The translations under genes were made by a program, and so were the position numbers. A stretch of 45,469 nucleotides of DNA from contig CAYNQI010000007.1 of the NCBI GenBank assembly GCA_964399335.1, positions 1-45,469 on the forward strand. The letters run 5' to 3'. The DNA comes from an uncultured Thermoplasmata archaeon. Lineage in GTDB: Archaea; Thermoplasmatota; Thermoplasmata; Halarchaeoplasmatales; Halarchaeoplasmataceae. The notes under the pieces were generated by a model, which worked only from the letters and a program-made list of their open reading frames with translations, had not been told where the DNA came from and did no database searches. This document shows positions 36,752 through 41,665 of this stretch, in pieces (within the stretch, counting starts at the first letter, position 1; each line of letters begins with the position of its first letter).

Positions 36752-37948
36752 TTAAAACATGATAAAACTGTAGATTAGATATGAACCCGCTATAACAAGT
36801 ACAATCCCTGAGATCTTGTTTATCCATAATGAAGCTTCACTGAGTTTTCTTTCTAAAACACTTTTGAAGCGGACGGTGATCAGAGAGAATGCGATCATCA
36901 ATATCGACATGGTTATCAGATAAAGAATAAGTACGATAACCGCACCCTGGAAACCCTGCGATAACCACGAAGATAATATCACCGCTATGAAGACCGGGGC
37001 GGTACATCCTGCAGATGAAGCTCCGTATCCGAGACCATAAAAGAAAGGTGAAGAATCGTTACTTCCTTTTTTAGAACTCATATTGAATCTATCTTTTAAC
37101 TTTGTAAGATTTTTCGAAAGATGACCACCGATATCGATGTTGGAAAGTATGAATATACCGAGTATCAAAATAGATATTCCGACGATCAGTTCAAGGTAAG
37201 GTATGTAATCTGCTAACCATCTTCCTCCACTCACTGCTATTGCCCCTATTATTCCGAATACAAGGATTATCCCAAGTGATGCTTTGACCCCCATCGAAAG
37301 ACCGGTCTGTTCCTTATTTTTTCCGTCTGGTCTTATGTAATATGCTACGTAGGATGGCAGCAATGGGAATGAACATGGTGAAAAGAACGATGCGAACCCT
37401 CCAAGTATCGCAATCGTGTAGATACCATATTCCCTGAGTTCAATTCTTTCAGCCGTCCCTTCTAAGACTTTGTCGAACTCTCTTGACAATTCATTTCTTG
37501 ACGGAACACCTCTTTTTTCATACGTGATATAACCCTCGGGATCTATGATGGTAACCATAGGAACCGAGGTTCCCTGATAAATTGAGAACAGTTCAGAATC
37601 ACCGCTAGCTAATTCCCAAGGGATGTTTCTATCTTGTTTTAGATCATCTAAATAATCGATGGGATTGCCATCTATATCGATAGAAAGGAATATGAACTCA
37701 TCACCATATCCCGGGTGTAACTCTTTCAGATTTTCTTCCACTTCTCTACATTGGATGCATAGAGGAGTCATGAATTCTAAGACTACGGGTTTCTGCTGTT
37801 CAGATAGAGTGAAATCCTCATACGCTGTAGTCGGAACGGTAAAATCAGGGGCGGGTTGAACTGCACTAGATGTTGGTAATGTTAATAGTAAGATGATCAG
37901 GGATAACGAGATGAGTAATCTGTATTTAGGTGAAAATCGGATATTCAT
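36752..37948 (-). CDS. ccdA: Exported TlpA-like thioredoxin fused to a CcdA/DsbD-type transmembrane electron transporter
   Basis: Signal peptide, APDFT and CIQC redoxin, then SFFSPCSFPLLPSY and GCTAP in a six-TM domain. Confidence 0.88.
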   Translation of the reverse strand: MNIRFSPKYRLLISLSLIILLLTLPTSSAVQPAPDFTVPTTAYEDFTLSEQQKPVVLEFMTPLCIQCREVEENLKELHPGYGDEFIFLSIDIDGNPIDYLDDLKQDRNIPWELASGDSELFSIYQGTSVPMVTIIDPEGYITYEKRGVPSRNELSREFDKVLEGTAERIELREYGIYTIAILGGFASFFSPCSFPLLPSYVAYYIRPDGKNKEQTGLSMGVKASLGIILVFGIIGAIAVSGGRWLADYIPYLELIVGISILILGIFILSNIDIGGHLSKNLTKLKDRFNMSSKKGSNDSSPFFYGLGYGASSAGCTAPVFIAVILSSWLSQGFQGAVIVLILYLITMSILMIAFSLITVRFKSVLERKLSEASLWINKISGIVLVIAGSYLIYSFIMF

Positions 37949-38035: not shown

Positions 38036-38503
38036 ATGGGAATGAAGTCCGTGACTGAAAGAGATCGTAAGTACATCAGAGCTATCTATTTGAAGGAAGG
38101 CTACAAAAGACCCGTAGGTCCTTCTGAGTTAGCAGAAGATATGGATGTGAGTCGAGTAGGCGCCCTTCAAAAGATGCGGCGGTTAGAGAGTCAAGGTTTG
38201 GGAGAGTACTTGTCTAAAGAAGGATTGATTCTGAACGGGGAAGGTGTGGATATCGTCGAAGAAGATATCAAACGCCATCACCTGCTTGAAAAGTTCCTTC
38301 AAGAATCTTTGGGGATGGACTTCGATGAAGCCTGCAGGGAGTCCAGTAGGTTGGGGCCCATCGTTAGTGATAAGATGATGGATAGGATCGATAAGAATTA
38401 TCGTGAATATCTAGAATGTGAGTGCGGTCTCTGTTTAGATCCTCCATACGAACCAGATGATCTGGAGGAATGTCATTGGATAAGAAGAGAGTTCGGTAAA
38501 TGA
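38036..38503 (+). CDS. DtxR/MntR-family metal-dependent transcriptional regulator with a Cys-rich tail
   Basis: YIRAIY..E, HTH (SELAEDMDVSRVGALQKMRRL) and RHHLLEKFL..LG; tail CECGLC...CHW. Confidence 0.85.
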   Translation: MGMKSVTERDRKYIRAIYLKEGYKRPVGPSELAEDMDVSRVGALQKMRRLESQGLGEYLSKEGLILNGEGVDIVEEDIKRHHLLEKFLQESLGMDFDEACRESSRLGPIVSDKMMDRIDKNYREYLECECGLCLDPPYEPDDLEECHWIRREFGK

Positions 38504-38514
38504 GGTGAAAGAAA

Positions 38515-39450
38515 ATGAAGAAGAAAAAATTGATAATATTGATGGTTAGTGTGATGTTGGTCTCTACGTTTGCTGTTGGTTGTTTAGAAGATGATGACGG
38601 TGAGCACGAAAATATGGATCCCCATATCTGGATGTCGCCTAAGAACGTTGAATTGATGATAGATAATTTTGTAGAGGGTTTAGAGGATTCAGATATCGGT
38701 TATGAAGAGCTCAATAGAGTAGCGGTTACTATCCCTCCTCAGCAAGAATGGGTGGAGAATGTTTGCAGTGAAGATGTTCAGATCACAGTGATGGTTCCGG
38801 AAGGTGCGGACCCGCATATATACGAGCCCACAACATCTCAGATGAGGGATATATCTGAAGCAGACGTTTATTTTAAGATCGGTTCAGGTGTGGAGTTCGA
38901 AGAGAGATGGATGGATAGTCTTATCGAACAGAATACAGATATGCTGGTAATCGATGGAAGCGATGGTATCCATCTGTTGGAATATGGTGATGAGCATGAT
39001 CATGACCATGATGATGACCACGGCCACGAACATTCGATCACATTGACCAGTACAAGCCGGTTCCGTGAAAATGCTGATGAATACCTTCACGACTTGCATG
39101 ACCTTCATCACTGGATAGAAGAAGAATTGGAACCATACCATGGACGTAAATTCTTGATATATCATCCCTCCATGGCTTATTATGCTCATGAATATGGAGT
39201 TGAACAGATCGCTGTGGAACGTGAGGGGTTAGAACCGGGCTCGAAGGGTATCCAGGCTGTGATAGAGCAGGCTGAAGAAGAGGATATACGAGTAGTATTT
39301 GTATCTCCACAGTTCGATGAAAGTCGAGCTCAGACCATCGCCGATGAAATAGATGGAGAAGTTATTGAACTTGACCCTCTTTCTTCGGATTATATAGAAA
39401 ACTTAGAGGATATTACCCAGAACCTCATAGAGTCATTTGGACCTGAGTGA
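38515..39450 (+). CDS. znuA: Zn/Mn ABC transporter substrate-binding lipoprotein (ZnuA/TroA family), internally rearranged
   Basis: Lipobox AVGC, DPHIYEP, His-rich loop HDHDHDDDHGHEH, YHPSMAYY and LDPL; the DPHIW segment sits at the N-terminus. Confidence 0.9.
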   Translation: MKKKKLIILMVSVMLVSTFAVGCLEDDDGEHENMDPHIWMSPKNVELMIDNFVEGLEDSDIGYEELNRVAVTIPPQQEWVENVCSEDVQITVMVPEGADPHIYEPTTSQMRDISEADVYFKIGSGVEFEERWMDSLIEQNTDMLVIDGSDGIHLLEYGDEHDHDHDDDHGHEHSITLTSTSRFRENADEYLHDLHDLHHWIEEELEPYHGRKFLIYHPSMAYYAHEYGVEQIAVEREGLEPGSKGIQAVIEQAEEEDIRVVFVSPQFDESRAQTIADEIDGEVIELDPLSSDYIENLEDITQNLIESFGPE

Positions 39451-40229
39451 TTCATATGCAAAAAGCTATCGAAGTTAACGATGTAGGTGTAAAATATGGT
39501 AGACAGACCGTTTTGAAGGATGTTAGCTTCGAGCTTGAAAAAGGAAATTTTTTAGGTATAATCGGACCGAATGGCGGAGGTAAAACGACTTTGTTGAAGG
39601 TTCTTTTAGGGCTGGTAAAACCAGATAATGGCACGGTAAAAATATTCGGTAAAACCGTCAATAAATCTGGGGATATCGTTGGTTATGTCCCCCAGCGCAT
39701 GAACTTCGATATTCAATTCCCTATCAGCGTCTGGGAAGTAGTCCTTATGGGGAGGGTAGGTAGTCTTGGTTTGAAACCTTTCTTTTCTAAGAAAGATAAA
39801 AAGATCGCTAGTCACAGTCTTGAACTTGTAGATATGTTAGAGTATAAAGACAGACAATTTTCGAAATTATCAGGAGGACAACAGCAGCGTGTATTGATCG
39901 CCAGGGCCCTAGCAGATAGACCAAAGATATTATTGCTAGATGAACCCACGGCAAGTGTGGACGAGCAGATCAGGACCAATATCTATGAACTTCTGGAAGA
40001 ATTGAACAGAGAAGAAGGTATAACCATAGTTTTGGTATCCCACGATATCGGGGTGATCTCTTCTCATGTAGAGAAGGTAGCCTGCTTGAACAAATACTTG
40101 ATCTACCACGGTGATGACGAACTCACACCTGAGATGCTCGAGGAATCCTATGGATGTCCAGTTGATCTGATAGCCCACGGTCATCCCCATAGAGTTTACG
40201 AACATAGGATGCCATCGGAGGATGAATAA
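39447..40229 (+). CDS. znuC: Metal ABC transporter ATPase
   Basis: GPNGGGKTT, LSGGQQQR and LLLDEPT; C-terminal CPVDLIAHGHPH; GTGA overlap with znuA. Confidence 0.93.
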   Translation: MIHMQKAIEVNDVGVKYGRQTVLKDVSFELEKGNFLGIIGPNGGGKTTLLKVLLGLVKPDNGTVKIFGKTVNKSGDIVGYVPQRMNFDIQFPISVWEVVLMGRVGSLGLKPFFSKKDKKIASHSLELVDMLEYKDRQFSKLSGGQQQRVLIARALADRPKILLLDEPTASVDEQIRTNIYELLEELNREEGITIVLVSHDIGVISSHVEKVACLNKYLIYHGDDELTPEMLEESYGCPVDLIAHGHPHRVYEHRMPSEDE

Positions 40230-41040
40230 AATGTTCGATATACTTCAGTACACTTTCATGAGGAACGCCATATACGCTGGGATATTTGCTTCGCTTTTAT
40301 TCGGTATAATCGGAACATTGGTTGTAGTTAAAAGGATAGTTTTCATCAGCGGCGGGATAGCTCATGCCTCCTTTGGAGGAGTTGGTATGGCATTTTATTT
40401 GGGATTGGATCCACTTGTAGGTGCTTCTATTTTCACCGTGATCTCAGCGTTAGGTGTAGGTATATTGGGTGAGCGGAAGATCGAACGTGAGGATACAGCT
40501 ATCGGAGTTATCTGGGCTGTAGGTATGGCACTCGGTGCTTTTTTCTATTCCATAACTCCCGGGTACAGAACTATTAGTCCATCTAGTTTTCTTTTTGGAA
40601 ATATCGTGATGATCAGGCATCTTGATATCTTATTACTGTTGGCCCTGACAGCAATAACGCTAATATCTGTGGTCTTCTTTTATCATAAATTCCAGGCAGT
40701 AAGTTTTGATGAGGAATTCTCAAAAGTGGTAGGGGTAAATACGTTCTATATCAACATCTTCCTTTTACTTTTAGTGGCATTCTCCATAGTCTTACTGATA
40801 AAGTTCGTTGGTATCATACTTGTGATAGCTCTTTTGACTATACCTGCGTCTATATCGAATCATTTTACCCACGATATGAGAAAGATCATGGCCTCTTCAT
40901 CTTTACTTTCCCTGGTGTTCATAATGTCCGGACTTTGGATCTCTCATACTCTCGATACCGCAGCTGGCCCTACTATCGTGATAATGGCTGGGATAGTGTT
41001 CATCATAGTAACAGTGATTTCAAAAATATTGAAGAGATGA
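40222..41040 (+). CDS. znuB: Metal ABC transporter permease (ABC-3 family)
   Basis: GIAHASFGG, SFDEEF, VGIILVIALLTIPA and GPTIV. Confidence 0.93.
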   Translation: MNKMFDILQYTFMRNAIYAGIFASLLFGIIGTLVVVKRIVFISGGIAHASFGGVGMAFYLGLDPLVGASIFTVISALGVGILGERKIEREDTAIGVIWAVGMALGAFFYSITPGYRTISPSSFLFGNIVMIRHLDILLLLALTAITLISVVFFYHKFQAVSFDEEFSKVVGVNTFYINIFLLLLVAFSIVLLIKFVGIILVIALLTIPASISNHFTHDMRKIMASSSLLSLVFIMSGLWISHTLDTAAGPTIVIMAGIVFIIVTVISKILKR

Positions 41041-41044
41041 ATAT

Positions 41045-41665
41045 TCAGTTTTGGTTATCTTTACCCTTCATTTTATTTAGGTGGAATATGATAGCTATGG
41101 CGACTACAAGCGAAGAAACGGTTATGACCAGCATATTTCTAAAAAAGTTATCTTCACCGATAATCTCCTCTTGTGTCGTAATTCCTGTATCAGTGGTATC
41201 CTCATTGTTATCGTTCTCAGGTTCTGAAATAGTGTCTTCACTGTCATAATTTTCAATGACTTCGTCGATGACGGTAACTAGTTGGTCCGCATCTAAGAAT
41301 CCTACTTCCCTTTGGATCACAGCCCCTTCAGAGTCGGTGAATATTGAAGCAGGCACTCCTGTAATTCCGTATTGGGAAGCTAACCCTCTCTCTGCGTTTG
41401 CATCAACTTTTACAAAAACTATATCGTCACCTCTTTCTTGGACTTTATGTTCTGTGAAAGTTTCTTCTTCCATCATCACACAGGCCCCGCAGTTTTCAGT
41501 ATAAAAATAGACCATGATGGGCTGTTCTCTCTGTTCTGAGACAGAAAGTCCTTCATCATATGAGTGCCAATCCATGCTGTTTGCAGAAACTAGTGAAATC
41601 GAAAACATAGACGCCAGAAGTAGTGCTAGAATCATGATCGTAGAATAAAACACTCGTTTATGCAT
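41045..41665 (-). CDS. Exported, membrane-anchored thioredoxin-family protein
   Basis: Signal peptide, MVYFYTENCGACVMM, YGITGVP, acidic linker and C-terminal TM helix. Confidence 0.87.
   Translation of the reverse strand: MHKRVFYSTIMILALLLASMFSISLVSANSMDWHSYDEGLSVSEQREQPIMVYFYTENCGACVMMEEETFTEHKVQERGDDIVFVKVDANAERGLASQYGITGVPASIFTDSEGAVIQREVGFLDADQLVTVIDEVIENYDSEDTISEPENDNNEDTTDTGITTQEEIIGEDNFFRNMLVITVSSLVVAIAIIFHLNKMKGKDNQN

Follow-up and report, generated by a model that had tools for sequence, protein, structure and literature searches.

A non-circular permutation in a ZnuA-type substrate-binding lipoprotein of an uncultured Thermoplasmata archaeon

The DNA analysed here, referred to as the window in the following, is a stretch of 45,469 nucleotides from an uncultured Thermoplasmata archaeon of the family Halarchaeoplasmataceae (GenBank assembly GCA_964399335.1, contig CAYNQI010000007.1, positions 1 to 45,469). 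On its forward strand, it carries an operon of the order repressor-znuA-znuC-znuB. The first gene (38036–38503) encodes a regulator of the DtxR/iron-dependent-repressor family (Pfam PF01325 and PF02742); members of the DtxR/MntR family often control manganese or iron systems. The second gene (38515–39450), which is preceded by the ribosome-binding site GAGGTGA, encodes a ZnuA-type substrate-binding lipoprotein of 311 residues and is the subject of this study. It is followed by the genes for a ZnuC-type ABC ATPase (39447–40229; PF00005), whose GTG start codon overlaps the znuA stop codon (GTGA), and for a ZnuB-type ABC-3 permease (40222–41040; PF00950, 226 bits). Upstream of the operon, a divergent gene on the reverse strand (36752–37948) encodes an ordinary thiol-disulfide transfer protein in which a thioredoxin/AhpC-like domain is fused to a DsbD/CcdA-type membrane domain.

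In canonical ZnuA proteins, the first metal-binding histidine (His1) is followed by a His-rich loop, a helix with the second histidine (His2), the backbone helix and the third histidine (His3). This is not the order of the window protein. We describe its segments with three HMMs that were built from canonical relatives only and represent strand β1 to the strand before the His-rich loop (segment A), the DPHxW helix (segment B), and the backbone helix with the C-lobe (segment C). On the window protein, they match in the order B (residues 36–62, 45 bits), A (70–156, 142 bits) and C (185–309, 176 bits), and this B-A-C order is borne out by the sequence motifs and by phmmer.

The chain begins with a signal peptide, a lipobox (FAVGC in MKKKKLIILMVSVMLVSTFAVGC; the Cys23 codon lies at 38581–38583) and the acidic linker EDDDGE, all of which are recognizable in the sequence and together occupy 38515–38604. 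The linker runs directly into HENM-DPHIWMSPKNVELMIDNFVEGLEDSDIG, the beginning of the relocated segment B (H31–G62, 38605–38700). This segment comprises HENM, which corresponds to the tail of a His-rich loop, the DPH motif DPHIWMSPKNVELMIDNFVEGL, whose first codon is at 38617 and whose histidine is His2 (H37, 38623–38625), a helix (residues 42–58) that counts as the last one of the N-domain, and the tail EDSDIG. Segment A (Y63–Y157, 38701–38985) follows and extends from β1 to β4 of the N-domain; it opens with YEELNRVAVTIPPQ, which forms β1 and holds VAVTIPPQ, and continues to GADPHIYEP with His1 (H101, 38815–38817). Next come the His/Asp-rich loop GDEHDHDHDDDHGHEH (G158–H173, 38986–39033; pLDDT below 50 for residues 161–174) and, where canonical proteins hold the B helix in our alignment A1, the filler SITLTSTS, a predicted coil (39034–39057). 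Lastly, segment C (R182–E311, 39058–39447) begins with RFRENADEYL and consists of the backbone helix (182–208) and the C-domain, including the motif LDPL; its YHPS motif carries His3 (H217, 39163–39165), which is invariant in alignment A1, as is H101. A reading of the sequence alone, made before our analysis, had placed a DPHxW segment with the second ligand at the N-terminus, ahead of VAVTIPPQ and DPHIYEP, and had seen nothing but SITLTSTSR between the His loop and FRENADEYL. The phmmer and HMM matches agree with the former, and the sequence reads exactly as stated for the latter.

The window protein matches the ZnuA family profile (PF01297) with 200.8 bits against a curated cut-off of 29, in three separate stretches, and is by homology a member of this family with a variant topology. 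It reaches no NCBIfam equivalog cut-off, and the same is true of the canonical relative P0008. Its best solved relative, both by sequence and by fold, is ZnuA from Synechocystis sp. PCC 6803 (PDB 1pq4; loop-deletion structures 2ov1 and 2ov3). In a phmmer comparison (E-value 2.5e-45), residues 69–173 of the window protein align with residues 5–106 of the 1pq4 chain, residues 34–56 with 130–152, and residues 182–305 with 162–285. The two proteins share two DPH motifs, a three-histidine site, a His-rich loop and a long backbone helix, and both are encoded in an operon together with ZnuC and ZnuB. In 1pq4, however, β1, His1 and the His loop directly precede the DPHxW helix with His2, which in turn precedes the backbone helix, whereas in the window protein the DPHxW helix stands before β1 and the His loop is connected to the backbone helix via 8–9 filler residues. 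This arrangement is not a chance resemblance, because the window B segment keeps all the residues conserved in the family (D-P-H-x-W-x-S-P-x-N) and because the 9-residue gap is too short to house an 18-residue helix. Since B-A-C cannot be reached from A-B-C by a cyclic shift, it constitutes a non-circular permutation.

An unusual segment order within a metagenome-assembled gene raises the question of whether an assembler chimera or misjoin might have put the N-terminal DPHIW block onto a gene that is in truth canonical. The observation that speaks for this comes from three metagenome runs (X3, X6, X9), whose Logan contigs branch at 38603/38604 into a canonical N-terminus (GE-YDLVVAVTIP); a canonical allele with the same 5' end is therefore present in the same samples. 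Nevertheless, the fork is explained by that allele, which is of the type found in the related genome G002 and differs from the window across the whole cassette. The window stretch itself is contained in 12 metagenome runs from soda lakes or salt lakes, covering at least three studies, and contigs assembled from four of them (X1, X3, X6, X9; at least three studies) extend across both junctions, this support consisting of assembled contigs rather than raw reads, with one run possibly being the source of the window itself. A 2999-nt contig (X3 record 11) spans 38575–39500 with zero differences; further contigs span 38400–38889 (X1 record 1), 38768–39299 (X6 record 17), and 38602–38993 and 38964–39146 (X9 records 24 and 26), and none of these bridging contigs has a joint or an indel at either junction. 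Furthermore, B-A-C genes with 52–86% identity occur in five independently assembled genomes and in additional metagenome proteins. The misjoin reading, against which the sequence-only reading had already argued from the sequence itself, is thus effectively refuted, and we treat the permuted gene as real.

The comparison with G002, the closest relative, shows where the chain was rewired. At the same locus (L015), this genome encodes a canonical long-form ZnuA (P0121). A blastn comparison of L001 with L015 gives 97.3% identity from the regulator gene through codon 30 of znuA (38116–38604 in the window, L015:1–489), and the two diverge exactly at 38605. From there, G002 reads EDDDGE followed by YDLVVAVTIPPQ, and the window reads EDDDGE, then HENMDPHIW...EDSDIG, then YEELNRVAVTIPPQ. 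Relative to P0121, the window thus has 96 additional nucleotides (38605–38700) between GAG (E30) and TAT (Y63), and it is without the internal B block that P0121 possesses. Formally, the moved piece is a 32-codon block located between GE and YDL of the canonical lipobox linker. Its start resembles the end of a His-rich loop, and its tail, LEDSDIG, is similar to the turn that leads into the backbone helix in canonical proteins (L-x-E-V-D-P-D-N-S-D-I). At the donor site, canonical proteins read HEGD-DPHIWLSPVNAKIMINNLLNALTEVDPDNSDI-YNENAADY where the window has HEH-SITLTSTSR-FRENADEY (alignment A1).

The differences between these two genomes are not confined to the first junction. The mature part of the G002 znuA-znuC-znuB cassette is approximately 65% identical to that of the window (39527–40856 versus L015:2163–3516), whereas the flanks are 86–97% identical, with 87–94% identity resuming at 41330, just downstream of znuB. 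The G002-type junction corresponds to the contig fork at 38603/38604 in the three runs mentioned above. Given this fork and the identity of the flanks, two alternative cassettes share one regulator and one signal peptide in lineages that live side by side in the same lakes, which documents recombination of the whole cassette at the znu locus.

The sequence-only reading had suggested a search for homologs with the same motif order, and these indeed exist. Besides the window protein, six others have the B-A-C order: P0002 (86% identical), P0003, P0004 and P0005 (72–77%; two of these three are labelled Candidatus Saliniplasma by NCBI), P0006 (54%) and P0011 (52%). Among genomes, it occurs in G001, G003 and G004, which represent three further species of the window's genus g1 and bring the number of g1 species with this order to four. 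It also occurs in G031, a member of genus g8 within the same family. G001, G003 and G004 are collinear with the window across the 3.9-kb locus at 75–81% nucleotide identity. The operon order of the window recurs at locus L005, which holds the B-A-C gene of G031 and from which we take the operon context of the second B-A-C clade (P0006/P0011). The MAG that encodes P0011 is labelled Candidatus Aenigmatarchaeota by NCBI, and an identical gene is located at L005, in a genome of the window's family; either the NCBI label or the binning is in conflict here.

Beyond these proteins, the B-A-C form is rare. Among 400 genomes of the class, a collinear B-to-A arrangement was detected in 5, namely in the window genome (G000), G001, G003 and G004 of genus g1 and in G031 of genus g8. 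A phmmer search with residues 30–135, which cover B and most of A, against 1.84 billion cluster representatives returned one collinear match, P0006 (query positions 3–105); those among the other matches listed in this search that cover both B and A do so as two separate stretches. Segment mapping of 144 new proteins yielded 117 with the canonical A-B-C order, 25 fragments, one tandem fusion and one protein in which the C segment matched twice. In total, the B-A-C form accounts for one of about 150 related clusters at 50% identity.

The structure prediction, likewise proposed as a check by the sequence-only reading, yields a ZnuA fold. The AF2 model (mean pLDDT 89.1, pTM 0.83) was computed from an alignment of 79 rows, of which 7 cover the N-terminal segment, and its confidence is low only in the linker that follows the lipobox (24–29) and in the His loop (161–174). 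The moved helix (42–58) and its link to β1 (59–67) are predicted with a pLDDT of ~95–96. In the model, two α/β lobes are joined by the long backbone helix (182–208). VIA-align superposes it on 1pq4_A with a Z-score of 26.0 and an rmsd of 1.9 Å over 225 of 255 residues, and yields Z-scores of 19–22 for AztC, YfeA, MntC, PsaA and TroA; Foldseek also places the model with Synechocystis ZnuA. As both methods depend on chain order, they aligned model residues 65–309 only. The approximately 30 residues of 1pq4 left unmatched have the size of the B helix, for which an order-dependent aligner finds no match.

For comparison, we also folded the canonical P0008 (pLDDT 93.0) and compared the DSSP strings of the two models. 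Around the moved block, the window protein shows the same pattern, E---HHH-H17, as P0008. An isolated bridge before the loop is seen at D122 of P0008 (LLD/Y) and at E156 of the window protein (LLE/Y), and a second one directly before the DPH motif at D135 and M34, respectively; these are followed by a short turn (139–141 in P0008, 38–40 in the window protein) and by the B helix (143–160 and 42–58). In E. coli ZnuA, loop L7 is closed by backbone hydrogen bonds, and the bridge signature of the window protein matches this (PMC1867320). The models thus suggest that the moved block, at its start, pairs with the end of the strand before the His loop, and that the helix occupies its usual slot, with E156 and M34 as presumed bridge partners.

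Taken together, these observations make it quite likely that the product of this gene is a zinc-binding protein, tethered to the membrane, that serves a ZnuABC-type importer and has undergone a natural non-circular permutation. The assignment to zinc is suggested by the His/His/His ligand set, the His-rich loop and the identity of the best solved relative. Most likely, the 32-residue block would dock back into the canonical slot, where H37, H101 and H217 would rebuild the three-histidine zinc site. A 9-residue coil would join the end of the B helix to strand β1, and the His-rich loop, together with the 8-residue filler, would form a strap from the rim of the metal site to where the interdomain backbone helix begins. 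As this loop no longer returns to its own starting point, it has to bridge a distance of approximately one B-helix length before the backbone helix is reached. Docking of the helix, zinc as the substrate and a normal function in transport are what we infer from the features described above.

In principle, the protein could also be decaying or repurposed, with its internal helix deleted and an undocked DPH motif at the N-terminus, which would leave a non-functional receptor or a two-histidine site. Some orthologs seem to point in this direction: while the His-rich loop has 16–24 residues in all B-A-C proteins, most of its histidines are lost in P0003, P0005 and P0011, and the DPH motif has changed to DIH in P0005 and to DAH in P0011. 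Yet even in these two His2 is kept, and H37, H101 and H217 are conserved in all seven B-A-C proteins, as expected from the earlier claim that no ligand was lost. Purifying selection on the B helix is as strong as on the remaining protein: across the four congeneric orthologs, dN/dS is 0.04–0.18 for the B helix, 0.06–0.15 for A, 0.09–0.13 for C and 0.08–0.17 for the whole gene, although some synonymous distances are saturated in the short B block. Moreover, this query revealed no other ZnuA homolog in the window genome (completeness 80%), G001 (93%) or G003 (95%), the translational coupling of the gene to znuC is kept, and the moved segment combines a pLDDT of ~96 with the canonical local signature. 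We therefore consider decay or repurposing improbable and the rewired protein probably functional. With an order that is conserved down to 52% identity and a confidently predicted ZnuA fold, the natural relocation of a segment within one domain, which the sequence-only reading had proposed, is supported.

The window's family also includes relatives with other architectures. The canonical P0008, P0014 and P0121 have the order A-B-C and are 60–66% identical to the window protein over A and C; they share its lipobox and linker as well as its operon, and the first 30 codons of P0121 are 97% identical at the nucleotide level. A third architecture, B-C-A, is found in genus g8, at loci L019, L027 and L029 (proteins P0126, P0130 and P0131 from genomes G023, G033 and G019). 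Unlike B-A-C, this order derives from the canonical one by a cyclic shift, and these proteins are circular permutants. They start with a membrane anchor, the DPHTW helix, the backbone helix and the C-lobe, followed by a linker of 15–25 residues, the part from β1 through His1 to the loop, and two His-studded domains of ~100 residues. One of their genes lies at L027:445–2118 on the reverse strand, in the same kind of operon (repressor-znuA-znuC), and a DtxR-family gene precedes the permuted genes at both L005 and L027. The B-C-A proteins resemble the window protein in family, habitat, lineage, the break point in the His loop and a DPHxW helix that comes first after the anchor. They differ from it in that B and C remain contiguous, with A placed after C, and in that they have a transmembrane anchor without a lipobox and the two extra C-terminal domains.

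A repeat domain of ~100 residues with the motifs DHWHGSLP and HGDHVHI, encoded for instance at L027:448–1122 (reverse strand), is also found inside the His loop of P0015, P0033 and P0121 (L015), and P0033 carries it at its C-terminus as well; it has no significant match in Pfam and no sequence match in the PDB. In the canonical P0007, P0009, P0010, P0012 and P0013 (genomes G028, G027, G021 and G009), the loop contains two tandem helical His-rich units of ~40 residues each with the motif HLIEDIDHIIHEWEDGxMTAEEAxEAIxDLxH.

Both B-A-C and B-C-A open the chain in the His-rich loop. According to what the structure entry 2ov1 conveys, Synechocystis ZnuA tolerates the deletion of this loop. Being disordered, it may have provided a permissive break point. 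It seems conceivable that a copy of the B block arose at the N-terminus and that the internal one was lost thereafter, possibly by way of an intermediate with a tandem duplication or a fusion; an alternative route would be that a tandem duplication was trimmed. Among long homologs, we searched for such intermediates and obtained 11 matches, all of which are canonical long forms or B-C-A proteins, with no A-B-C-A-B-C or B-A-B-C among them. Likewise, a comparison of nucleotides 38584–38727 (N-terminal linker and moved block) with 38980–39085 (end of the His loop and filler) in search of a trace of duplication gave a best local score of 20, which was reached by 115 of 500 codon shuffles and is therefore no sign of remaining similarity. 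In the search of cluster representatives, we came across P0159, a distant relative of 570 residues with ~36% identity to the query, which is a tandem fusion of the order A-B-C-A-B-C. A protein of this kind is the intermediate needed by duplication-and-trimming models of permutation.

Whether the relocation happened once or twice is less clear. In a tree computed from the A and C columns, the window clade is the sister group of the canonical P0007–P0014 (support 99/95), while P0006 and P0011 fall together with the B-C-A proteins and the canonical long forms. Two independent relocations under the same structural constraints, one in the genus-g1 clade (window, P0002–P0005) and one in P0006/P0011, would account for this placement of the clades in different well-supported groups, and an AU test of a single B-A-C clade points the same way (p = 0.037, delta lnL 21), although this p value is marginal. 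On the other hand, the DPH-to-β1 spacing of 34 residues and the break points are equal in both clades, their B segments are 72% identical to each other, compared with 48% between the window clade and its canonical sisters, and the whole-cassette recombination at this locus can scramble the signal in A and C. We therefore see two origins as a possible but less favored scenario, and find a single origin with later recombination somewhat more likely.

Natural permutations have been described for other proteins. TpMglB-2 (Tp0684) from Treponema pallidum is a circularly permuted glucose-binding lipoprotein of cluster B that retains its fold and its ligand binding (PMC4990184). It belongs to a sugar-binding cluster, its permutation is circular and it features a fourth hinge crossing (PMC4990184), whereas in the window protein one metal-ligand helix is relocated within one lobe. 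Non-circular permutations are known elsewhere, for instance in the HK97-like capsid fold of phage BPP-1 (PMC3863775) and in the cases collected in PMC2096629. In these cases, elements keep their places in three dimensions while the chain order changes non-cyclically, as is probably true of the window protein, but they were recognized by structure between very distant proteins (PMC3863775, PMC2096629). For the window protein, by contrast, canonical relatives are still 60–66% identical, and the break points are therefore readable to the codon, a resolution that non-circular permutations do not usually offer.

The cluster A-I proteins, such as ZnuA, PsaA, TroA, MntC and AztC, are among the best-studied bacterial receptors, and to our knowledge they have been described with a single chain topology. 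Our full-text searches of the literature outside subscription journals brought up no account of a permuted binding protein from cluster A-I (ZnuA/TroA/PsaA). In the literature searched, the B-A-C topology is thus undescribed for the ZnuA family, in line with what the first look at this sequence had supposed. There are also consequences for annotation, as profile-based methods split the B-A-C proteins into pieces, and rules based on motif order would call them defective.

The B-A-C proteins, the circular permutant and the tandem fusion provide a natural series on how folds tolerate rewiring. This series also raises the questions of whether the disordered His-rich loop is a permissive site, and of whether the loop still takes part in capturing zinc when it does not close beside His2. 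One could imagine a common scheme, speculative and rather unlikely as it is, in which the His-rich loop is a hotspot of rewiring, the B-A-C and B-C-A forms are different trimmings of a fused tandem ZnuA-ZnuA ancestor, and the position of the His2 helix next to the anchor is functional. If this were true, a mechanical link would tie the metal-site helix to the membrane anchor, with the His-rich loop acting as a strap, and the capture and release of zinc at the permease could change in the zinc-poor, high-pH brines of soda lakes.
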